A stretch of 64,000 bases of DNA, taken from the NCBI GenBank assembly GCA_007376185.1, contig VMFS01000001.1, forward strand, positions 94,206-158,205, in the 5' to 3' direction. Both the position numbers and the translations under genes were made by a program. Below are positions 10,770 to 63,476 of the stretch, piece after piece. The notes beneath the pieces are model-generated. The model did no database searches and was not told where the DNA came from. It saw only the letters and a program-made list of their open reading frames with translations. Every line of letters begins with the position of its first letter. Position 1 is the stretch's first letter. The DNA comes from Parcubacteria group bacterium Gr01-1014_30 (lineage in GTDB: Bacteria > Patescibacteriota > Minisyncoccia > Minisyncoccales > 2-12-FULL-40-12).

Positions 10770-11063
10770 TTACAGCCTTTCCTTTTTAAATCTCTTTTCT
10801 TTTTTTACCCAGTGCCAGATTTCCAAAGGCAGCTTTACCTTATTTTTTTTGAAAAAATCCAGAATCTTCTTGCGGCACCTCGCAACGTTCTTTGGCGTAG
10901 TCAACTGAATATGTCTAAGTTTTCTTCCTTTTAGAGCCAGCAGGTCAATGATGCCGAAAACGTCGTTTTGTTTGAAGCGCACTTTTGAGGGATACCAGGT
11001 TATCCACCCCCTTTGTGCAAGCTCGGCAACCGCCTTTTTTCTCGTTTCCGTTTCCTTAGCCAT
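10770..11063 (-). CDS. small basic protein, possible Hjc/VRR-NUC-like PD-(D/E)XK resolvase-fold protein
   Basis: AVAELAQRGW...DVFGIIDLLALKGRKLRHIQL resembles the Hjc core (E...D...ExK), but Q/T stand where E/K are expected. The gene overlaps the yebC stop, in the position ruvC usually occupies. Confidence 0.35.
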   Translation of the reverse strand: MAKETETRKKAVAELAQRGWITWYPSKVRFKQNDVFGIIDLLALKGRKLRHIQLTTPKNVARCRKKILDFFKKNKVKLPLEIWHWVKKEKRFKKERL

Positions 11064-28963: not shown

Positions 28964-29035
28964 GTCCCTATAGCTCAGTGGATAGAGCGCCGGCCTCCGG
29001 AGCCGGAAACAGAGGTTCAAATCCTCTTAGGGACA
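28964..29035 (+). tRNA. tRNA-Arg (anticodon CCG)
   Basis: Cloverleaf folded by hand: acceptor GTCCCTA/TAGGGAC, D arm GCTC-AGTGGATA-GAGC, anticodon loop CTCCGGA, T arm AGAGG-TTCAAAT-CCTCT. Confidence 0.75.
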
Positions 29036-29045
29036 CAAACCTTTA

Positions 29046-29118
29046 TGCGCCCGGCAGGACTCGAACCTGCAGTCTCTTCCTCCGCAGGGAAACGCTTTAT
29101 CCATTAAGCTACGGGCGC
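29046..29118 (-). tRNA. tRNA-Arg (anticodon GCG as read, unusual)
   Basis: The reverse complement folds as acceptor GCGCCCG/CGGGCGC, D arm GCTT-AATGGATA-AAGC, anticodon loop CTGCGGA, T arm GCAGG-TTCGAGT-CCTGC. Confidence 0.65.
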
Positions 29119-29279
29119 AACCTGTTTTATGATACCGCCAAGGCCGCTTTACTTCAAGCCCCGTATATCATCTTCGACAGGATTTTCTTTTAGAAAATCC
29201 TGTAATCGCGAAGCGAGTCGAAGTTGTATTACGGGGCAAGGTTGACTTAGTTTATTTTAATAGGTAAGATATAGCCATT

Positions 29280-29368
29280 GGAGGAGTGCGTGAGTGGTTC
29301 AAACGAGCGGCTTGCTAAGCCGTGGCGGCCTAATAAGTCGCCCGTGGGTTCAAATCCCACCTCCTCCG
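29280..29368 (+). tRNA. tRNA-Ser (anticodon GCT), type II with long variable arm
   Basis: Acceptor GGAGGAG/CTCCTCC. Anticodon stem-loop GCGGC-TTGCTAA-GCCGT. Long variable arm. T arm GTGGG-TTCAAAT-CCCAC. Confidence 0.75.
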
Positions 29369-29414
29369 CACTTCGGAAGCTCAGTGCAAGCATTTGTTTT
29401 AAGAGTATAAATTA

Positions 29415-29576
29415 ATGAGTATGTGGTACACGTATGTGCTTCTTTGCGATCAGAAAACTTTTTATGTAGGAGTTACAGATAACCCTGTAGCGAGGATAGG
29501 TCAACATAGAAATAGAAAACCACTTTTTACTAAAAAGTTTTTCCCACCTCCTCCGCTTTCTGGAGGGTTCGCCTAA
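29415..29576 (+). pseudogene. truncated GIY-YIG nuclease gene remnant running into tRNA-Ser(TGA)
   Basis: Translation MSMWYTYVLLCDQKTFYVGVTDNPVARIGQHRN is the GIY-YIG N-terminal motif. Compare the intact paralogue at 48518-48775. The ORF stops after 54 aa inside the tRNA. Confidence 0.6.
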
Positions 29577-29646
29577 TGGTATGGCACCGCTCTTGAAAAG
29601 CGGCGGACGAAAGTCCTTAGAGGTTCGAGTCCTCTACCCTCCGCCA
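29562..29646 (+). tRNA. tRNA-Ser (anticodon TGA) with encoded CCA
   Basis: Acceptor GGAGGGT/ACCCTCC. Anticodon stem-loop CCGCT-CTTGAAA-AGCGG. Long variable arm. Ends GCCA. Confidence 0.75.
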
Positions 29647-29776
29647 GTTATCAACCATTGTCTTCTTGCACTAGAATAACCGAAATAATAAAATGAAATC
29701 AGGACATTTCTGCCGGACTTGTTGGGGAGTCCAGGTCTATTTGAAGCATCATAATAAGAATTTTAACTTTTTTATT

Positions 29777-30715
29777 ATGAAAAAATTACTGCTAACTTTT
29801 TTATTGATAGTTTTTGTATTTCTATTTTTACTCGCATTTCAAGCCAATGCCGTAACCACGCTCTTTATTAAGGGTGACAGTTCAGAAATAAGTGGAGTAA
29901 CCAATGGTTCAATTTTAACACCCAATGTACGTCCGGCTTTATTAGTAGGAACAGTTATTGTTAAAGGTACAGGATCAGTCAACTTTGCTCCAGCTAATAC
30001 TGGAGATGGTGTATTTTTTAAGTTTGGAGGAGCGCAAAATGTAAATTCGGCTTTCTACAGACTGGTTGGAAACGGCGTTGGCGATGTATTTAATTCTAAT
30101 CAAGGTGATATAATTTTTTATTTAAAATCTAATTATAGCTTTGCCGAAAGAAAAGCCCTAACTGACCCCCCTCCTATAGGTAGTTATGTCTTTGATGTTG
30201 TTGATGGAAATAATATAAAATTTTATAAATTTTATGTTTTAACAAGCGAGGTTGGAAAATTATCTTTTGTTTATCAGGTAAATGGTTCGTCTGATATTAC
30301 TTACGAAGTGCCAGCTGGTCAAGAAGATGTATTTTTTGGAAAAGACGTAATTTTAAAAATCCACATAAGCTGGATTGGGAATACAGTCTCTTTGTATTTA
30401 AACCAAAACCTCGTTAATGCCACTAATTACACACCTCAAACTCCCAATTGGACAAGTATTTCCGGAATAATTATAGGAGCTGCTCAGGGCGGTTTTTTTG
30501 CTTCACCTGATATTATAGATGATTTTTTTGTTGGAGAACCAACTCCTACACCTACTCCTACGCCAACTCCTACGCCAACTCCAATACCAAGAATATATAG
30601 CCAGACCTCAGATTTTTTCGACGCCACTACTGTTCATCCAGAAGCCAAGGGATTTCAATTAGCCGACTATGACCCCGTAAGTAAAAAGGTTGTCTTTTAT
30701 CCATGGGGGGGGTGA
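29777..30715 (+). CDS. N-terminal part of a large secreted surface protein (signal peptide, lectin-like region, PT-repeat linker); frame broken at a G8 tract
   Basis: The internal ATG at 29777 gives MKKLLLTFLLIVFVFLFLLAFQANA. A (PT)n linker follows. The ORF ends at a TGA created by the G8 run at 30705-30712. Confidence 0.6.
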   Translation: MKKLLLTFLLIVFVFLFLLAFQANAVTTLFIKGDSSEISGVTNGSILTPNVRPALLVGTVIVKGTGSVNFAPANTGDGVFFKFGGAQNVNSAFYRLVGNGVGDVFNSNQGDIIFYLKSNYSFAERKALTDPPPIGSYVFDVVDGNNIKFYKFYVLTSEVGKLSFVYQVNGSSDITYEVPAGQEDVFFGKDVILKIHISWIGNTVSLYLNQNLVNATNYTPQTPNWTSISGIIIGAAQGGFFASPDIIDDFFVGEPTPTPTPTPTPTPTPIPRIYSQTSDFFDATTVHPEAKGFQLADYDPVSKKVVFYPWGG

Positions 30716-33659
30716 AGGCGATAATCCCCGTGGTGTTATATTATCTTATCAAACCGATAAAAACTTTTTAGATAAAACAAGCTACGAAGCTTCTGACCTC
30801 ACCCAGTTAATCGCCCCAGAAGCTGAGGGCTTTGGCGCCGGCTGCCTAGGTACAAATGGGTGGTTTTATCTCCCAGCCAATAGAAAAGATGTAGGAAGCG
30901 GAATCCAGGCCAATACCTTAATGGTCCGCTATCTAGGAACTAGGTCAGTCACCGACCGCTCTGCCTATGAGACCTTTGATGTAGCAGTATTAGGTATGCC
31001 TAGCACCGGTTGGGCGCCTTGCATCTACCTTAACGGCTTCATCTATTACAGCCCGATTCTCCAGAAAGGAAGCACTAAAGTTCTCCACGGTATCTTCCTA
31101 AGGTATAACACCAGCCTTGCCTTTGATAATCCCTTAGCTTGGAGTTGGTATGACATTAAAACAAATGTTAATTCCAGAGCTCACGCTTTTCAATCAATGG
31201 CTGCGAAATATCCTTATGTTTATCTGATTCCTTTTGGTGTAGGTGAAAGCTTAATAGTTCGCTATGACGTCACAAAACCCTTTAACTCCCCTTCTTCTTA
31301 CGAAACTTTTGACATTGCCACCCTCAATCCTAATGTAAAAGGTCCGACAGGAGGAATAGTAGTTGGCAATACTCTCGTCCTCGTTCCCTGGAGAAATCTT
31401 TCCAAGCCATCTGGCACTCAACAAATCATGAGCACGTCTGCTGCTTATGACACTACTAAATCATTATCTGATTCAACTGCCTGGAAATTTTTCGATACCA
31501 CCACCATCGACCCTAATGCTAAAGGCTACCAATTCGGCTGGGCTGATAAGAATAGCTTTGTTCACTTTGTTCCCCAGCAGAGAGGTCATGGCCGCGTTCC
31601 GCCGTTTATTGTTTGGGATGGAGAGGGGATTTTCGATAACGCTTCATTCTGGAAAACCTATAGTAGTTCGGGTGTAAAGCCATCTACTGGTGCTGCCTAT
31701 GACGGTGAGAGTACCGCTTGGCTTGCTCCTTATGGCAGCGATGGAGATAGCGGTCTTATTACCCGCGTAAATATGGCGTATTCTGTAACTCCACCGCCTG
31801 GAGGCGGAGGCGGTGGAGGAGGAGGAGGCGGAGGAAGCGAAATTCCAGATATTACACCGCCATCGCAGGTTAGCAATTTTCAGGCCGAAGGTGCATATTC
31901 TCAGGTTTCTCTTTCTTGGACTAATCCCTCTTCTACGGACTATGCTGGAATTATAATTGTAAGAAAAGATGGTTCCACTGCTTCAAATATTAATGACGGA
32001 ACCAAGATATATGAAGGAACTGGTCAATCTTTTGTTGATACAGGTATTGTTGGCGGGCGCACCTATTACTATTCAGCCTTTACATTTGATAGTATCCCTA
32101 ACTACTCTTTTCCAGTGACTATCGTAAGTACTGCCTCCGATATTTCTGATATTCAAGTCAAAAATATTACTGACACAACGGCTATTATAACTTGGATAAG
32201 CAGTAATCCATCATCATCTAAAGTTAACTATGGGTTAACTTCAGCCTATTCATTTTCGACATTAAAGGATAATAATTTGATTACTAATCATTTAGTAATC
32301 CTAGGCAACTTAAATCCATCGACTAGTTATCATTTTCAGGTTGAATTCGCGGACTCTTTAAATCAGACGTCTATCTCCGATGATTATATTTTCACTACTG
32401 AAGCATTAACTATCCTACCCAAAATAAGTAATCTTAAAGTTTTAGAAATAACTAAAAATTCCGCTAAAATAACTTGGGATACAGACAAAGCATCCGATTC
32501 ACAAGTTGAATATGGTTTGTTCCCTACTTATGGATTAATTACTTCTTTAGACACTAATTTAGTGACTAATCATGGCATTATCCTGGCCAGTCTTTCCGAG
32601 GGCACTACTTATCATTTCAGAGTTAAATCAGGGGGAAGCGTGTCTATAAACAATACTTTTGAAACCAATCAATCTATCTCGACAGATATTACTTCGCCTT
32701 CAAAGATAACAGATCTTAAAGTTGAAGATTCAACAGAAACTTCTGTAACTTTGAGTTGGATTAGCCCAGGAGATGATGGTGTAATAGGGGTTGCCTATAG
32801 CTACGATATGCGTTGGAGTAATTCTGAAATTACTGATTTTAATTGGCAATTTGCAAAAAAGCTTGATGGATTGCCAATGCCTCTGACTTCGGGCAGAAAA
32901 CAAATTTATGATGCTATTTTTTTGAATCCCGACACAACATACTATTTTGCCATCCAGGTAAAAGATGAGGCTAATAATATATCTTTATTGTCTGAATATG
33001 TACAGGCAAAGACAAAACCAAAACAAGAAATCAGCGATTTAACTCCTGCTGGTCAGGTTAAAATTGAAAAATCAATAGGGGCTGACAGACAGGTAATTAT
33101 TGAATGGATAAATCCCTCTGACAGCGATTTTGCCAGAGTAATAATTGTATTTAAACCGGACAAAGCACCGAATAGTATAGCTGATGGCAATAATGTCTTT
33201 AATGGCAAAGATACAAAATATACCCAAATTAATTTAGAAAACGGAAAGACATACTTTTTTGCCCTTTATACCGTAGATCTTGCCGGGAATTATTCTCCTC
33301 CAGTTATCTTTAAGGTTGTTCCTAAGGCAGAAGTTACTTACTTTTCAGAAGTTAAACCGACAAATTTTGATCAAGTTACGCCATTTACTCCTCCTTCTCC
33401 AAAAACAGCAATCGCCATAACTAAAAGCCTAAGCTTTGGTTCAAGAGGAGATGAAGTTAAAAGGCTTCAAGAATTACTCTCTTTAGACTCTTCTATTTAT
33501 CCCCAAAAACTAGTGACTGGCTACTTTGGTTCTCTTACCAAGGCTGCGGTTCAAAAGTTCCAGTGCAGCCAGAAAATTGTTTGTTCAGGCACAGAAACAA
33601 CTACTGGTTATGGCCGAGTCGGTCCCAAGACCAGAACTAAATTAGATGAGGTTTTTTAA
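30690..33659 (+). CDS. C-terminal part of the same surface protein: Gly13 linker, FN3-like repeats, C-terminal peptidoglycan-binding domain
   Basis: Repeated ITWxSxxPSSSxVxYG...TxYHFxV modules are FN3-like. The C-terminal GDEVKRLQELL...GYFGSLTKAAVQKFQ is PG_binding_1-like. The ORF has no ATG and begins inside the G-run overlap. Confidence 0.6.
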   Translation: MSFIHGGGEGDNPRGVILSYQTDKNFLDKTSYEASDLTQLIAPEAEGFGAGCLGTNGWFYLPANRKDVGSGIQANTLMVRYLGTRSVTDRSAYETFDVAVLGMPSTGWAPCIYLNGFIYYSPILQKGSTKVLHGIFLRYNTSLAFDNPLAWSWYDIKTNVNSRAHAFQSMAAKYPYVYLIPFGVGESLIVRYDVTKPFNSPSSYETFDIATLNPNVKGPTGGIVVGNTLVLVPWRNLSKPSGTQQIMSTSAAYDTTKSLSDSTAWKFFDTTTIDPNAKGYQFGWADKNSFVHFVPQQRGHGRVPPFIVWDGEGIFDNASFWKTYSSSGVKPSTGAAYDGESTAWLAPYGSDGDSGLITRVNMAYSVTPPPGGGGGGGGGGGGSEIPDITPPSQVSNFQAEGAYSQVSLSWTNPSSTDYAGIIIVRKDGSTASNINDGTKIYEGTGQSFVDTGIVGGRTYYYSAFTFDSIPNYSFPVTIVSTASDISDIQVKNITDTTAIITWISSNPSSSKVNYGLTSAYSFSTLKDNNLITNHLVILGNLNPSTSYHFQVEFADSLNQTSISDDYIFTTEALTILPKISNLKVLEITKNSAKITWDTDKASDSQVEYGLFPTYGLITSLDTNLVTNHGIILASLSEGTTYHFRVKSGGSVSINNTFETNQSISTDITSPSKITDLKVEDSTETSVTLSWISPGDDGVIGVAYSYDMRWSNSEITDFNWQFAKKLDGLPMPLTSGRKQIYDAIFLNPDTTYYFAIQVKDEANNISLLSEYVQAKTKPKQEISDLTPAGQVKIEKSIGADRQVIIEWINPSDSDFARVIIVFKPDKAPNSIADGNNVFNGKDTKYTQINLENGKTYFFALYTVDLAGNYSPPVIFKVVPKAEVTYFSEVKPTNFDQVTPFTPPSPKTAIAITKSLSFGSRGDEVKRLQELLSLDSSIYPQKLVTGYFGSLTKAAVQKFQCSQKIVCSGTETTTGYGRVGPKTRTKLDEVF

Positions 33660-33763: not shown

Positions 33764-34921
33764 ATGTTAAAGCAAAAGGGTATAACAACTACTCAAACTA
33801 TATTGATTATTGCAGTAATATTGCTATTGATTTTAATTATTAGCAGAGCTAATCGCAGACAAGACTTACAAGAAGGAGTTCCCGAAGAGATAGATATCGA
33901 TATTCCCGGAAGCATGGTTAAGAAAATTTCACTATTGGCAACGAGTTCATATGCCGGCAGAGTGGACTGGTCGCATGCAAATAACCTTATCGCATTTTCT
34001 AAAGTCGGCGACGACGGCTATGCAGATATCTATACTATGAATTCGGATGGTTCAAATAAAACCTGTTTGACTTGCGGCGCAGTCGGTGTTCCGCAGTTTT
34101 ATAACGACCAGCCGGTGTGGCACCCATCCGGAGACTATATTATCTTTCAAGCCCAGGATCCCAATTTAAGTTCTCTGTCTACGTATTTGGTGCAAGGCGG
34201 CGCAGGACTTAATAATAATTTATGGGCCATAAGTAAAGACGGACAGCGGTCCTGGCAGTTGACGCACATTGAGGATAGGGAAGCAACACTTCATTCGCAT
34301 TTTTCTCATGACGGTAAAAAGTTGCTTTGGGCGGCTCGAGAATTGCAAGACGGCAAGAAAGCCCAGTGGATGCTTAAAATCGCTGATTTTATCGTGGATG
34401 GCGGCGGCCCTCGTTTAGCCAATGAAAAAACCTATCAGCCAATGGGCGAAAATGTATTCTACGAAAGCCATAGTTTTACTCATGATGGTCAAAAGATTAT
34501 TTTTTCGGCCAGTTACACTGCCCCGGCTTTTGATTTGGATATTTATATTTTGGATCTTCGAACCAATAAGCTCACCAACCTGACCAATTCTCCCGGAGAG
34601 TGGGATGAACATTCTATTCTTTCTCCCAACAACAGATTAGCTTGGATATCAAGCAAAGGATACTCATTCACCCCCTCCGCGAATTGGGGCGCAACTCTTA
34701 AAACCGATCTCTGGCTTATGAATCTGGACGGAAGCAATAAAACAAAGGTTACTCACTTTAATGAGCCGGGCTATCCGGAATATGAGAGCGGGAAAAGGGT
34801 GATTGCTGCTGATAATTCTTGGAACAAAACCGGAGATAAGCTAGTATTAACTCTTGGCGTAATAAAAGGTAAAACCGTTGGCAGTAGGGTAGTATTAGTG
34901 GAATTTAACAGTCCTCAATGA
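33764..34921 (+). CDS. TolB-like beta-propeller (PD40 repeat) secreted/membrane-anchored protein
   Basis: N-terminal TM helix. Repeated xDGSNKTxLT/WHPSGD PD40-like blades. Paralogue of 38778-40019. Confidence 0.55.
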   Translation: MLKQKGITTTQTILIIAVILLLILIISRANRRQDLQEGVPEEIDIDIPGSMVKKISLLATSSYAGRVDWSHANNLIAFSKVGDDGYADIYTMNSDGSNKTCLTCGAVGVPQFYNDQPVWHPSGDYIIFQAQDPNLSSLSTYLVQGGAGLNNNLWAISKDGQRSWQLTHIEDREATLHSHFSHDGKKLLWAARELQDGKKAQWMLKIADFIVDGGGPRLANEKTYQPMGENVFYESHSFTHDGQKIIFSASYTAPAFDLDIYILDLRTNKLTNLTNSPGEWDEHSILSPNNRLAWISSKGYSFTPSANWGATLKTDLWLMNLDGSNKTKVTHFNEPGYPEYESGKRVIAADNSWNKTGDKLVLTLGVIKGKTVGSRVVLVEFNSPQ

Positions 34922-35049
34922 TTAAAACTGGTTGCCGTCGCCGCCCTGCCCGCCGAAGTCTACCTACTCCGCCGAAGTAGCTTCAGCTACGAAGGCCGGG
35001 CAACGCAGGCGGGGCCCAGCCAGTTCTGTTCGGATATTTTCAAACAGAC

Positions 35050-35227
35050 ACCGCCAGTTGGGAAATGAAGCACTTGGCTCGCCCGCTCCCACTTCGCCCT
35101 TCGGGCTACGAGGGACAAGTACGCGGGCTCGCCATCCGTTTTTCGGGGAAATTTCAAGCCGTTTTGCCTGCCCGCCGAAGCCTTGGCGCAGGCGGGAATT
35201 CAGTAAGGCCAGAAGCGGGCTTTTCTT
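35050..35227. repeat. GC-rich structured element, copy 1 (about 180 bp; UUCG-capped and GC-stem hairpins)
   Basis: Near-identical to 36230-36375 apart from a 33-bp indel. Much higher GC than the surroundings. Confidence 0.6.
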
Positions 35228-36549: not shown

Positions 36550-37665
36550 ATGTCAGAAGTAAATAACAATAATCGTATGAAGCAGACTTCTAACGGGGTG
36601 AAGTTTTTTGTAACACTGTTTATTATTACATCGTTCATTTTCGTCGGAGGAAGTGCCATAGCCCAGGATCAGCAAGTGGCGTTGCCTTCAGCTGGTCTTA
36701 CCCCCGAAAGCTCCTTTTATTTTATTGACAGATTCGGAGAAGCACTGCGTGAGTTTTTCACTTTTAATCCAGATGGTAAAGCCCGCCTTCAGATCACTTT
36801 TGCCGCCGAACGAGTTGCCGAGATAAAAGTTATTCTTGAAACAAAGGGCGTTCAAGCGCCGGGCCTCGAAGTTGCCCAAAGCCGCCTGCAAGCGCATCTT
36901 GCTAATGCCGCCACCATCGTTACTGAACAAAAAGCAAAAGGAAAAGATGTGAGCCAACTTGCCAAAGAGCTGAACGATGAGTTTGGAAGTTCCAAAACCG
37001 CTCTTCGGCAAAGTTTCAAAGCAAAAGAGCGAGCATTAGAAACTCAAGAAAAAGATTTGAAAGCAAAAATCCGTGAAGCACGGATTGCCGGCGACGCCGC
37101 CCAAGTTGAGGCGTTAGTTAAGCAATTAGGAGAAGTCAAAGCGCAAAAAGACCTTTTGGAACTTAGAGAAAAGGAGCAGGAAGAAGCGTTAGAGCGGGAA
37201 GAAGAAAAGATTGAGCGGGAGATGGATAAAAAAGAGGATGCCCAAAAAGCCATAAAAGAAGCTGAAGAAGAAAAGCAGGAAGTATTGGATGAGGCCGCCG
37301 AGGAGGGTGTTGATGTTCCTGCAGAAGCGTTTGAAAAATTTGACCGCCTCCTTACTCAAGCCAAAGAACTCTTTGCCAAAGAGAACTATGTCGGCGCGAA
37401 ACAATTAGCCAAGCAGGCAGAAAAAAGCCTTGAAAAAGTAGAGGAGGCAATTGAAGATTTGGAAGAAGCAAAAGAGAAAGAGGAAGAATTAAAAGAGGAA
37501 CAAGAGGAGAAAGAGCGCGAGGCTAAAGAAGAGCAGGAAGAAAAAATAAAGGAAGAGGCGGAAAAGGAAGCCGAACGATTAGAAAAAGAAAGAGAAAAAG
37601 CCGAAGAGGATGCGCGTAAAGCCGAAGAGAGATTGCGTGAAGCAGGAAATGAAGACGAAGATTAA
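36550..37665 (+). CDS. secreted E/K-rich coiled-coil protein
   Basis: Signal/TM helix followed by about 250 aa of EK-rich heptad-like sequence. Confidence 0.5.
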   Translation: MSEVNNNNRMKQTSNGVKFFVTLFIITSFIFVGGSAIAQDQQVALPSAGLTPESSFYFIDRFGEALREFFTFNPDGKARLQITFAAERVAEIKVILETKGVQAPGLEVAQSRLQAHLANAATIVTEQKAKGKDVSQLAKELNDEFGSSKTALRQSFKAKERALETQEKDLKAKIREARIAGDAAQVEALVKQLGEVKAQKDLLELREKEQEEALEREEEKIEREMDKKEDAQKAIKEAEEEKQEVLDEAAEEGVDVPAEAFEKFDRLLTQAKELFAKENYVGAKQLAKQAEKSLEKVEEAIEDLEEAKEKEEELKEEQEEKEREAKEEQEEKIKEEAEKEAERLEKEREKAEEDARKAEERLREAGNEDED

Positions 37666-41455: not shown

Positions 41456-42538
41456 ATGGCATGGTTTTCTTTTAAAAAGAAGCGGAGAAGTTTTTTGGGC
41501 GTAGATTTTGGAACTTCCTCGGTAAGGGTTGTTGAATTGGCAAGAAGAGGGCAATCAGTGCACCTGCAAAACTACGGAGAGGTTGCGGCATCGGATATTC
41601 AAAAGTCGCCCCCTGGAACCATCACAAGCGATTCCTTGCTGTTTTCAAGCCGAGAAATGGCGGGAGCGGCCGAAGCGATCATAAGAGAAGCAGGAATTGC
41701 AACGAGAGAGGTTAACTTTCCCATACCGGATTTTTCAAGCTTTTTCACCAGTTTTGAGTTGCCCTCTATGAGTCCTAAAGAGTTAGAGCAGGCGATTTTC
41801 TACGAAGCAAGGAGCTACATTCCTCTTCCTCTATCTGAAGTAACCCTTGACTGGCAGGTTGAAGGAGGAGTTGTTGGGAAAAGAAGTCCTTTAATAAAGG
41901 TCCTGGTGGCGGCAGTACCGAACGACGTGATCGAACAGTACCAGCAAATTGCCGCCTTGTCTGGTTTGCAGATGAAGTCGCTGGAAGTAGAAGTGTTCGC
42001 TTTGCAAAGAGCGCTTGCCAGAGGAGAAAGCGGAACAATAGCGATCCTTGACATAGGGGCGAGGAGCACAACCTGCAACATCTTTGAGAATGGAGAGTTG
42101 AAAACTAGTCACAGCTTTAATGTATCTGGAAACGATTTAACAGAAATTTTAAGCAGGGCTCTCAAAATAGGTTATCAGGATGCCGAAAATATCAAAAAAG
42201 AGCAAGGAATTACTGGTTTTCAGGGGGCCGAAAAAGAAGCCAGAGAAATTTTGCTTCCCGTTGTTGATTCAATTTTGGAAGAAACGAAAAAAATTTTCCG
42301 AACTTTTAACAACAATCAGAAGAAAGGTGTAGAAAAGGTAATCTTGGCCGGCGCCACGGCTGTAATGCCGGGTTTGAAGGAATATTTTCTTGAGGAGTTA
42401 AACCCGCAAAAAATAGAGGTCCAAATTGCCGACCCCTTTAAAAAAGTATCCTGTCCCCAGATTTTAGAAGATATGCTAAAGGAGATGGGGCCTGTCTACG
42501 CGGTAGCCGTGGGTTCTGCCCTAAAAGGACTGGAATAA
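41456..42538 (+). CDS. pilM: type IV pilus assembly protein PilM (actin-like ATPase)
   Basis: FLGVDFGTSSVRVVEL is the actin-fold phosphate-1 motif. Confidence 0.8.
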   Translation: MAWFSFKKKRRSFLGVDFGTSSVRVVELARRGQSVHLQNYGEVAASDIQKSPPGTITSDSLLFSSREMAGAAEAIIREAGIATREVNFPIPDFSSFFTSFELPSMSPKELEQAIFYEARSYIPLPLSEVTLDWQVEGGVVGKRSPLIKVLVAAVPNDVIEQYQQIAALSGLQMKSLEVEVFALQRALARGESGTIAILDIGARSTTCNIFENGELKTSHSFNVSGNDLTEILSRALKIGYQDAENIKKEQGITGFQGAEKEAREILLPVVDSILEETKKIFRTFNNNQKKGVEKVILAGATAVMPGLKEYFLEELNPQKIEVQIADPFKKVSCPQILEDMLKEMGPVYAVAVGSALKGLE

Positions 42539-42563
42539 AAAATCCCATACTTGAACTACCAAT

Positions 42564-43088
42564 ATGGCTATAGAGGCATTTCCAAAATCAAAAATTAGAG
42601 AAGTTCACTGGCCGAAAACTTTTTCATATATTCTTACGGGCGCATTTTTGATTCTTCTTTCAAGCTACTTCATTTTGATTTTTCTTCAAGCACGCCTGAC
42701 CGATGAGCTGTCGGTGTTGGAAAGGAAACTCGAAAGGACGCAAGATGAGACAGAGTTGGAGAAAAACGTGCTTGACGCCAAGAAACGCATTGAGGACTGG
42801 AAGTTTCTGATAACGCATCACACCATGCCCTTTAACGTCTTTGAACTTTTGCAGTCAAGGACTCATCCTGAAGTTTGGTTTACCGATTTTATGCTGGACA
42901 CAGGGAATTCTTTGATGTCGCTTGGAGGCAGAGCGGAGAGCTTTGAAGTTTTGAGCCAGCAGCTCAAAATTTTTGAAAGCGAGGAGTCATTTCGCGGCAT
43001 GAATTTATCAAACATTACGGTTGTTAAAGGAGGGGAAGTAATGTTTGATCTGCAGCTTCAACTTGACCCAAGCGTTTTTAAACAATGA
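42564..43088 (+). CDS. pilN: PilN-like bitopic pilus assembly protein
   Basis: Single TM helix followed by a coiled coil. Lies next in the pil operon. Confidence 0.6.
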   Translation: MAIEAFPKSKIREVHWPKTFSYILTGAFLILLSSYFILIFLQARLTDELSVLERKLERTQDETELEKNVLDAKKRIEDWKFLITHHTMPFNVFELLQSRTHPEVWFTDFMLDTGNSLMSLGGRAESFEVLSQQLKIFESEESFRGMNLSNITVVKGGEVMFDLQLQLDPSVFKQ

Positions 43089-43621
43089 ACAGACCCATTC
43101 TTTACATTGCTCTTATGTCTTTGCTGCTTGTTTTGGGAGTGATATTTTTTTGGCAGCCAAAGTACAGAGACTTTACAGGGCTGCGGCTTCAAGTAAGCGC
43201 CAAAGCGCAGGAACTGTCCAGCAAAGTAGAGTACTTTTCGCGACTAGAGGATTCATTTGCCAGGATTTTGAAGTTTGACTCGGAGGTTGCTAAAGTTGAA
43301 TCGGCTCTTCCCGAGTCCCAAGACATCCCCGAGACAATCAACTTCATTTCCAGCGTCAGTTTTACTTCGGGCTTGTTGCTGCAAGCTTTGGACATTGGCA
43401 AGACGGCTCCCTTGACCGAGGATTCCTCAATTCTGAAAACCGAGATTACTTTTTCGCTTTTAGGGACTTACTCCGCATTCAAGGGTTTTCTGTCGGAACT
43501 TCAAAACAGCGCCAGGTTGATTGCGGTCCAAGAGGCGTCTTTTAAGCAACAGGGCGGAGAGGCAACCGAGATTTTCTTATTCAATCTAAAAGTAAGGACG
43601 CAGTCGTACCAAGGTTTATAA
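43085..43621 (+). CDS. pilO: PilO-like bitopic pilus assembly protein
   Basis: Single TM helix followed by a coiled coil. Overlaps the pilN stop. Confidence 0.55.
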   Translation: MNRPILYIALMSLLLVLGVIFFWQPKYRDFTGLRLQVSAKAQELSSKVEYFSRLEDSFARILKFDSEVAKVESALPESQDIPETINFISSVSFTSGLLLQALDIGKTAPLTEDSSILKTEITFSLLGTYSAFKGFLSELQNSARLIAVQEASFKQQGGEATEIFLFNLKVRTQSYQGL

Positions 43622-43624
43622 GCT

Positions 43625-43900
43625 ATGGCCACTTTTATTGAAGAAAAGAAAAAACAACGACGACTTGTTTACATTTTGATAGCGTTGACTACGATTACGG
43701 CTTTTGTTTTGTGGTACGGTTTTATCCGCAGGCCTCTGAGTCAGCCCTTGGAGATAGCCGTATTTCCTGCTCTTTTGGGGGTGGCGCAGATTGACTTTTC
43801 CGTTTTGGAAAACCCAATTTTGCAGCAACTTCGCCCTTTTGAAGAAGTGACTCCTTTTGATGGCGTTTTGGGAAGAGAAAACCCGTTTATACCATATTAG
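43625..43900 (+). CDS. small bitopic membrane protein (PilP-position)
   Basis: One TM helix. Operon position only. Confidence 0.35.
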   Translation: MATFIEEKKKQRRLVYILIALTTITAFVLWYGFIRRPLSQPLEIAVFPALLGVAQIDFSVLENPILQQLRPFEEVTPFDGVLGRENPFIPY

Positions 43901-43965
43901 AATTTCATCATTTCATCATGGCATCGTGATTAAATGTTGAAATGATTAAATGTTGATATGTTTCC

Positions 43966-45696
43966 ATGACTTTAGTTCAGCAATTAGTCAAAAAAGGGTT
44001 GCTGGAAAAAGACAAAGCTGTTCCTCTTGAATACGAAATTAAAAATTCCGGCAAAAAAGAAGAGGAGGTAATTTTGGAAAAAAGAGTAGTGTCAGAAGCC
44101 TTTCTCTTCGGTTTGAAAAGCGAAAACCTTAAAATCCCTCTGAGAAAAGTTGACCCAGAAACTGTTCCTTTAAGAGTGCTGGAAGTAATACCCGAGGATT
44201 CGGCCCGTTTTTACCGCTTCATACCCATTGCCAAAAAGGACAATGCCCTTCAAGTGGGCATGGTTTATCCCGAAGACATAAAAGCGCAAGAAGCGCTTGA
44301 GTTTTTGGCTAGACGGCAAAAACTCTCGTATCAAGTCTTTTTAATAACTTTATCCAACTTCAACGACCTTTTAAAAAAATACCGCACCCTCAAAGGGGAA
44401 GTAACCAAGGTTCTTGAGGAACTGGAAACGGAATTCAAAGAAGAGAAAGCTGGAGAAAAACCAGTTGCCGTTTCGGAGTTTGAAAGAATGGCCGAAGAAG
44501 CGCCCATTTCAAAAGTCGTGGCGGTGCTCTTGCGCAACGCGGTTGACGGGGAGGCCTCCGACATCCACATTGAGGCGACCAAAGAGAAAATAAGAGTCCG
44601 CTTTCGTTTGGACGGCATTCTGCATGCCTCAATTTTTCTGCCCTTGAGAATTCTGCCGGCCGTGGTGTCAAGAGTTAAAATCTTGTCAAACTTGAAAATA
44701 GACGAAACCAGGGTTCCTCAAGACGGCAGATTTACCGCAAGGATAGCCGGCAGAGACATTGACTTCAGGGTGTCAACTTTCCCGACTATCGTCGGAGAAA
44801 AAGTTGTTATGCGCATTCTTGACTCGGCAAAAGCCATCGTTAACATAAGAGACCTTGGGCTGTCGGAAAGAAACTTGAAAACCATTAATAAGGCTATAAA
44901 AAAACCGTACGGCATGATTCTGACGACTGGGCCCACGGGAAGCGGGAAAACCACTACCCTTTATTCCATTTTGAGGATTTTAAATAAAGAAGGCATCAAC
45001 ATTACAACCCTGGAAGACCCCGTAGAATACTTTATTGAGGGCGTGAACCAGTCGCAGGTGAGGCCTGAGATAGGGTATGAGTTTGCCACCGGATTGCGGC
45101 ACATAGTGAGGCAGGATCCGGACGTCATTATGGTTGGCGAAATTCGTGACGAAGAAACTGCTTCTTTAGCCATCCACGCCGCGTTAACAGGCCATATTTT
45201 GTTGTCCACGCTTCACACAAACAGCGCCATCGGAATAATTCCAAGGTTGGTTGACATAGGAATAAAGCCCTACCTCATACCTCCTACTTTCAGTTTAGGT
45301 ATCGCTCAGCGCTTGGTTAGGGTTTTATGCTCAAAGTGCAAAGAGAAAACTGTACCGAAAAAAGACATCAAGAATTTAATCTCGAAAGAAATTGAAAGCT
45401 TGCCTCAAGCAGTAAAGCAGGACCTTAAACTTCCAAAAGCCATTTATATTTATGAACCGGTTGGCTGTAAAAAATGCGCAGATACAGGTTATTCGGGGAG
45501 AATCGGGGTTTACGAGGCCATGGAGATGACCGATGAACTTGCCGAGATAGCTTTGCACGAACCCTCTGAAGTCAAGCTTGAACAAGAGGCGAAACGCCAG
45601 GGTATGGTAACCATGAAGCAAGACGGAATTTTAAAGGTTGTTGTAGACGGAATAACTTCCGTTTCGGAAGTGCTTAGAATGGCGGAAGAAAAGTAG
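43966..45696 (+). CDS. pilB: type IV pilus assembly ATPase PilB (GspE family, full length)
   Basis: Walker A LTTGPTGSGKTTT. Tetracysteine CSKC...CKKC. 576 aa. Confidence 0.85.
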   Translation: MTLVQQLVKKGLLEKDKAVPLEYEIKNSGKKEEEVILEKRVVSEAFLFGLKSENLKIPLRKVDPETVPLRVLEVIPEDSARFYRFIPIAKKDNALQVGMVYPEDIKAQEALEFLARRQKLSYQVFLITLSNFNDLLKKYRTLKGEVTKVLEELETEFKEEKAGEKPVAVSEFERMAEEAPISKVVAVLLRNAVDGEASDIHIEATKEKIRVRFRLDGILHASIFLPLRILPAVVSRVKILSNLKIDETRVPQDGRFTARIAGRDIDFRVSTFPTIVGEKVVMRILDSAKAIVNIRDLGLSERNLKTINKAIKKPYGMILTTGPTGSGKTTTLYSILRILNKEGINITTLEDPVEYFIEGVNQSQVRPEIGYEFATGLRHIVRQDPDVIMVGEIRDEETASLAIHAALTGHILLSTLHTNSAIGIIPRLVDIGIKPYLIPPTFSLGIAQRLVRVLCSKCKEKTVPKKDIKNLISKEIESLPQAVKQDLKLPKAIYIYEPVGCKKCADTGYSGRIGVYEAMEMTDELAEIALHEPSEVKLEQEAKRQGMVTMKQDGILKVVVDGITSVSEVLRMAEEK

Positions 45697-55623: not shown

Positions 55624-57818
<2,195 letters not shown>

Positions 57819-62697: not shown

Positions 62698-63476
<779 letters not shown>

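Follow-up and report, generated by a model that had tools for sequence, protein, structure and literature searches.

Phase-variable surface genes with poly-G or poly-C tracts, the contingency loci, are known from Campylobacter jejuni, Neisseria and Haemophilus. In such loci, an intragenic poly-G of about eight bases lies in a surface gene, and a change of one base by slipped-strand mispairing toggles between full-length and truncated product. Their tracts are heterogeneous in length in cultures, are found in many surface genes and are kept between strains. Homopolymers also break genes in reduced or symbiotic genomes such as those of Buchnera and Blochmannia, in which some of the frameshift pseudogenes are partly rescued by transcriptional slippage on long poly-A/T tracts. 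A different use of frame is made by prfB, the gene for RF2, where an in-frame UGA comes directly after a slippery codon and the functional protein is made when the ribosome shifts by +1. Bacteria at large share the prfB site, and a Shine-Dalgarno-like stimulator lies at a fixed spacing from it. Within the Candidate Phyla Radiation (CPR), slipped-strand mispairing has been discussed as a source of cell-to-cell variation in a hypervariable surface protein of a Gracilibacterium, which contains PTD repeats (PMC6851277). That variation is in-frame (9-nt repeats), and it alters the length of the protein, not its expression.

A gene of a Parcubacteria (CPR) genome, located within the 64,000-nt stretch of DNA that was analyzed here (the window), can be compared with each of these systems. 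As in the Campylobacter-type loci, a run of eight G is placed inside a surface gene, and one base separates the full-length from the truncated product. However, the tract has a single length in three assemblies, is missing from five homologue loci, and belongs to a sequence without an excess of G8 tracts. As in Buchnera and Blochmannia, the bacterium has a small genome and is probably host-dependent, and a single-base homopolymer indel is the only lesion of the gene, but the tract is poly-G. The order of a slippery codon and an in-frame UGA recalls prfB, and a +1 shift would again lead to a functional protein, whereas no homologue shares the frameshift and the search for a stimulator turned up none. 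The Gracilibacterium protein is similar in being a CPR surface protein with simple-repeat linkers; its PTD repeats have their analogues here in a Pro-Thr linker and a Gly12 linker, not in the G8 tract.

The tract occupies positions 30705-30712 of the window and consists of exactly eight G in the context TATCCATGGGGGGGGTGAAGG, which is read in codons as …TAT CCA TGG GGG GGG TGA AGG…. In an earlier note on this DNA, it was claimed that the tract splits a protein of more than 1300 aa, that reading it with seven G gives one continuous frame, and that the downstream ORF has no ATG start. All three statements proved correct. Deletion of one G opens a frame of 1,321 aa that reads ...VVFYPWGGEGDNPRGVILSY..., with the junction peptide ...VVFYPWGGEGDNPR, and neither fragment contains any other stop, the G7 reading being open over all 1,321 codons. 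For the downstream frame, the sole upstream start is a TTG, and the first ATG comes only at 30921, 77 codons into the ORF. The real start of the upstream frame is likely the ATG at 29777 (MKKLLL...); gene callers on the Logan and ENA contigs described below gave a 340/324-aa product there. The features of the region are as follows.

29693-30715, plus strand: ORF1, 340 aa from an ATG, with a TGA stop at 30713-30715 directly 3' of the G8; the 5' fragment of the broken gene
29777-29851, plus strand: predicted Sec-type signal peptide MKKLLLTFLLIVFVFLFLLAFQANA, read from the sequence; the sole export signal of the whole gene
29852-30538, plus strand: N-terminal domain of about 230 aa, common to the relative P0002
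30539-30580, plus strand: (Pro-Thr)7 linker with mixed synonymous codons
30590-31790, plus strand: seven-bladed beta-propeller according to an AlphaFold2 model, with 400 aa when seven G are read; its family has no Pfam model
30690-33659, plus strand: ORF2, 989 aa in the +1 frame; the 3' fragment of the gene
30705-30712, plus strand: G8 homopolymer, one G more than in the in-frame G7 state (TGG GGG GGT GAA = W G G E)
31800-31835, plus strand: Gly12 linker, 36 nt, in a mixture of GGA, GGC and GGT
31836-33323, plus strand: about five FN3-like modules (Pfam fn3, Pur_ac_phosph_N, DUF4959)
33444-33578, plus strand: C-terminal peptidoglycan-binding domain PG_binding_1 (Pfam PF01471)

It is strongly supported that ORF1 and ORF2 are one ancestral gene and that G7 is its intact state, by the alignment of homologues, by the structure model and by a relative that has both end domains. 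With a junction-spanning query of 400 aa that did not include the linker, 43 homologues were found, about 30 of which cover at least 94% of it in one polypeptide; a search with the N-terminal domain plus the Pro-Thr linker gave at least two matches. In the alignments, F36, P38, W39 and G40 on the ORF1 side and P46, V49, L51 and Y53 on the ORF2 side are invariant or nearly so. Reading seven G brings back the motif that is invariant in the homologues, FYPWGG....P.GV.L.Y, along with the majority loop length. The closest homologue, P0001 (72% identity), reads FYPWGGIDDDPLGVILSY. Another relative, P0002 (1,138 aa), joins the N-terminal domain of ORF1 and the C-terminal domain of ORF2 in a single protein, with 43% identity over residues 28-285 for the former (BLASTP, E=4e-57) and 55% over residues 1239-1321 for the latter. 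In the annotation, the two 'hypothetical proteins' of 340 and 989 aa should be joined and marked as a single gene with a frameshift. What P0002 has in common with this gene is limited to the N-terminal domain, together with its Pro-Thr linker, and the peptidoglycan-binding domain; its middle part of about 750 aa is quite different. As far as the two sequences can tell, the architecture may be of a 'bookend' type, with middle modules that would be swapped between relatives.

Judged from its predicted domains, the product of the intact gene would be a large secreted, peptidoglycan-anchored surface protein. The N-terminal domain may be concanavalin-A/LamG-like, a weak hint from Pfam Laminin_G_3, whose matches here (E=0.18) and in P0002 (E=0.0056) both stay below the cut-off. 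The earlier note had listed a PT linker, a Gly13 linker, several FN3-like modules and a C-terminal peptidoglycan-binding domain. Apart from the number of glycines, which is twelve (36 nt), these were recovered. The linker is (PT)7, and the FN3 region matches fn3 in 4 stretches (E=1.4e-23), Pur_ac_phosph_N (E=6.8e-22) and DUF4959 (33.1 bits), on DNA repeats that have diverged to 65-76% identity. With the C-terminal 607-aa fragment as query, PF01471 scores 25.3 bits and exceeds the Pfam gathering threshold of 23, whereas the full-length protein gives 22.2 bits; the match of P0002 itself reaches 34.1 bits (E=3e-8). The glycine tract had also been called slippage-prone. Slippage there would occur in units of 3 nt, so that the length of the linker would change and the frame would not.

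The break falls into the propeller. For the approximately 400 residues after the Pro-Thr linker, AlphaFold2 gave a model with seven repeats of 4 strands (pLDDT 94.1, pTM 0.92), and its best Foldseek matches in the PDB are kelch and WD40 propellers (E about 1e-9, TM 0.45-0.57). A Pfam search of the same stretch returned no match, including none to kelch or WD40, and the propeller is thus not assigned to a sequence family. In the model, the break site is flanked by two strands of blade 1, residues 33-38 and 49-54. Therefore, residues 1-40 of the propeller are encoded in ORF1 and the other 360 in ORF2. The middle domain belongs to an undescribed family of 7-bladed propellers of about 400 aa that is spread over several phyla. 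Members were found in MAGs of Parcubacteria, Dehalococcoidia, Myxococcota, Planctomycetota and Nitrospirota. The homologues (P0001, P0004-P0031; loci L001, L006-L009) are mostly stand-alone secreted or lipoprotein-like proteins of 370-700 aa, and none of the database homologues found has the propeller built into a protein longer than 1,000 aa, as is the case here. The gene of P0001 is directly downstream of two T2SSF/PilC-type genes (L001, 50-3136). In the window, a type IV pilus-like cluster (PilM, PilO, MshEN/T2SSE) is located about 10 kb downstream of the broken gene, at about 41500-45000. From these neighbors, the propeller may be linked to pilus or surface machinery.

How the gene came to carry eight G can be explained in several ways. 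The explanation ranked first, at even chances in our estimate, is a genuine and recent slipped-strand +1 insertion at an accidental G7 run, by which the protein is truncated in the dominant genotype. This is a third and the simplest option, absent from the earlier note, in which a sequencing or assembly error and a contingency switch were considered. The G7 run would exist only since the conserved Trp-Gly-Gly is encoded here as TGG GGG GGT. Slipped-strand mispairing in replication would then have added one G. From this point in blade 1 the propeller would be out of frame, and the ribosome would meet a stop, TGA, at the very next codon. What remains would be a secreted stump of 312-340 aa with the N-terminal domain, the linker and about 40 residues of the propeller, and the downstream 989 codons would be left without an export signal and without a credible start. 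Because of the frame shift and the immediate stop, the gene should be off in the genotype that dominates the population sampled. The lesion should also be recent, because no second defect is found in 3.9 kb. Compared with about 30 continuous homologues the frame is disrupted, as in a pseudogene, and further decay in the form of additional stops or indels is absent. We infer from this pattern that the lesion arose by mutation, that function is lost and that the event is recent. The G8 could revert like any other G8 tract, and nothing shows its selective upkeep as a switch. As it stands, this is an ordinary frameshift at a homopolymer, one more example of an event that is well known.

A second, doubtful explanation is that of a selected contingency locus, in which the poly-G is kept as a slipped-strand switch (G7 on, G8 off) of an adhesin-like surface protein, resulting in a mixture of expressing and non-expressing cells. 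The G8 does set the frame within the coding region of a secreted, wall-anchored multi-domain protein, and a surface protein of a likely episymbiont is the gene class typical for contingency loci. A single step is enough to return to the exact conserved motif. Outside the tract, the 3.9-kb gene is intact, and the absence of a second lesion fits a maintained, reversible switch equally well. The population is also heterogeneous elsewhere, as judged from eight SNPs in 61 bp between assemblies (37218-37278). However, the tract itself is not conserved. In all five homologue loci for which DNA was available, Trp-Gly-Gly is encoded by interrupted runs, namely TGGGGAGGG, TGGGGTGGT, TGGGGTGGA, TGGGGCACG and TGGGGCGGG. 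GGG makes up 15.5% of the Gly codons in the window, and the first Gly of the motif happens to be GGG in this gene. Moreover, G8 tracts occur at chance frequency, with two in the 64-kb window against 1.48 expected from dinucleotide shuffles (at least two in 45 of 100 shuffles), and the sole other one is in the essential atpD. Since one synonymous choice of GGG makes the G7 run and G tracts are not enriched, the tract needs no selective explanation. Its position, 26% into the gene and within a folded domain rather than in a 5' leader, also speaks against a switch.

The tract is G8 in all three assemblies, consensus sequences in which minority alleles are hidden. A scan of JGI metagenomes for the exact pattern around the tract, allowing G6 to G9, gave no match, and a protein-guided scan of the same resource gave 45 pattern matches with no relative among them. 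Among the GTDB species representatives, a scan with alignment A2 found only four distant loci, from Dehalococcoidia, Myxococcota, Planctomycetota and Nitrospirota; the source MAG was not one of them, and close relatives with which synteny could be compared were absent. An exact match to the hypothetical G7 fusion protein is missing from a collection of 15 billion proteins, a weak negative since the 340-aa product is also missing from that collection. No report of homopolymer phase variation in CPR or Patescibacteria was found in the literature, the nearest being that on the Gracilibacterium protein with its in-frame repeats. A frame-setting tract and a surface-exposed product are both present, and neither the five homologue loci nor the 64 kb examined hold a sign that the tract is kept by selection. 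The contingency switch that the earlier note had offered gained no positive support, given five of five homologue loci without the tract, the chance rate of G8 and the uniform length. That the tract is a working on/off switch for a giant wall-anchored propeller/FN3 adhesin of a Parcubacteria episymbiont is likewise doubtful. If it were true, no homopolymer phase-variable gene would have been described in the CPR before this one. Members of the CPR presumably rely on attaching to hosts; such a switch would possibly control host-cell attachment. The finding has biological weight only if the tract is length-variable in the population, in which case a stochastic surface-protein switch would be a new facet of the CPR lifestyle.

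The extra G is probably real. The alternative, rather improbable by now, is a consensus error, in which the true sequence is G7 and the additional base is a sequencing or library artefact at the homopolymer. As would be expected of such an error, the frame is lost exactly where the region has its longest G run, and removal of one base restores a perfectly conserved protein with no other defect. The homopolymer indel rate of the HiSeq 2500 is, however, far too low to flip a consensus. The sequence stems from BioProject PRJNA512237, a study of Ohio groundwater (Greene County among the sites) with Illumina HiSeq 2500 reads assembled by idba_ud (PMC11549363, PMC6730927). Run SRR8863434 of this BioProject yields a contig identical to the window, and the product of the gene next to the broken one (33764-34921) is identical to TSC75955.1, encoded on a 163-kb contig of Parcubacteria group bacterium Gr01-1014_30. 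Besides the idba_ud MAG, the G8 is present in the Logan contig SRR8863434_2215, 100% identical to the window over 5.4 kb, and in the 79-kb ENA MEGAHIT contig k139_162769 (ERZ27284378), 100% identical over 14.6 kb. In the 27 kb covered by ENA contigs there are 23 homopolymers of at least 7 bases, none of which disagrees in length. A second ENA contig, k139_33118, differs from the window at eight positions within 37218-37278 (61 bp, in a DUF5667-family gene) and is otherwise identical over 12.7 kb, with no indels. Because of these differences, it is an independent consensus and not a copy of the window; the 61 bp are a local strain-variable patch. Since they belong to one BioProject, the three assemblies probably rest on identical or sibling sets of reads. 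They exclude an artefact of the assembler, whereas a systematic error in the reads, or a population in which G7 and G8 are mixed, would be compatible with them.

Other homopolymers of the window also speak against a consensus error. There are 237 of at least 6 bases, and a change of one base in either direction gives a real gene fusion only at the G8 of 30705-30712; no other one breaks a gene. Two further sites flagged in this indel census, T6 at 11063 and T7 at 62789, turned out to be ordinary junctions of adjacent genes. The only other G8/C8 (56648-56655) is read in-frame, as Pro-Pro-Pro, in atpD, the ATP synthase beta-subunit gene on the minus strand (55624-56988). This tract is a useful internal control for homopolymer read error and slippage. 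The error suggested in the earlier note has therefore become less likely, with the G8 in three assemblies and an in-frame G8 in atpD, and keeps a small share of the probability. Both ENA MEGAHIT contigs end or start at 32220-32358, inside the FN3 region of the gene, with an overlap of 139 nt (= k). Since only diverged repeats (65-76%) are present there, this contig break may reflect a strain variant or a drop in coverage rather than an exact repeat.

With the extra G taken as real, full-length protein could still be made from the G8 template by recoding, if ribosomes slipped by +1 (or -2) on GGG GGG UGA or if RNA polymerase slipped on the G run, and the gene would be attenuated rather than off. 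This seems very improbable to us, although the identical Gly codons followed by an in-frame UGA are laid out like the 'shifty stop' of prfB and a +1 shift gives exactly the conserved WGGEGDNP. At about 20% of the positions in the gene, a +1 insertion would be followed by a stop at once, so that the stop seen here is not unusual. The 100 nt downstream carry no structure signal (z = -0.06), and the frameshift is conserved in no homologue, whereas a programmed site of the prfB type would be shared among orthologues. Efficient transcriptional slippage is known mainly for A/T runs. Read-through by code 25 (UGA = Gly) was rejected, as ORF1 would end three codons later at a TAA.

The remaining possibility, a secreted 340-aa protein and a 989-aa FN3/peptidoglycan-binding protein that are genuinely and separately translated, follows the two products given by the gene callers on the Logan and ENA contigs, but it is effectively refuted by a boundary that cuts propeller blade 1 (40 residues against 360) at a site split in no homologue, and by an ORF2 with neither ATG, signal peptide nor convincing ribosome-binding site, preceded by no promoter or terminator signal beyond chance between the two ORFs.

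Two observations concern the neighborhood of the broken gene. At 34930-35220, between a PD40/Tricorn_N gene and a small HTH gene, there is a GC-rich intergenic island of about 290 bp (56-63% GC vs 42% overall). Rfam contains no match to it (lowest E=0.78), its folding signals are not significant (z = -0.7 and -1.1), and a GCCCGCCGAAG-like motif recurs in it. Just upstream of the broken gene, at 28964-29646, four tRNA genes are clustered: Arg-CCG, Arg-GCG (minus strand), Ser-GCT and Ser-TGA.
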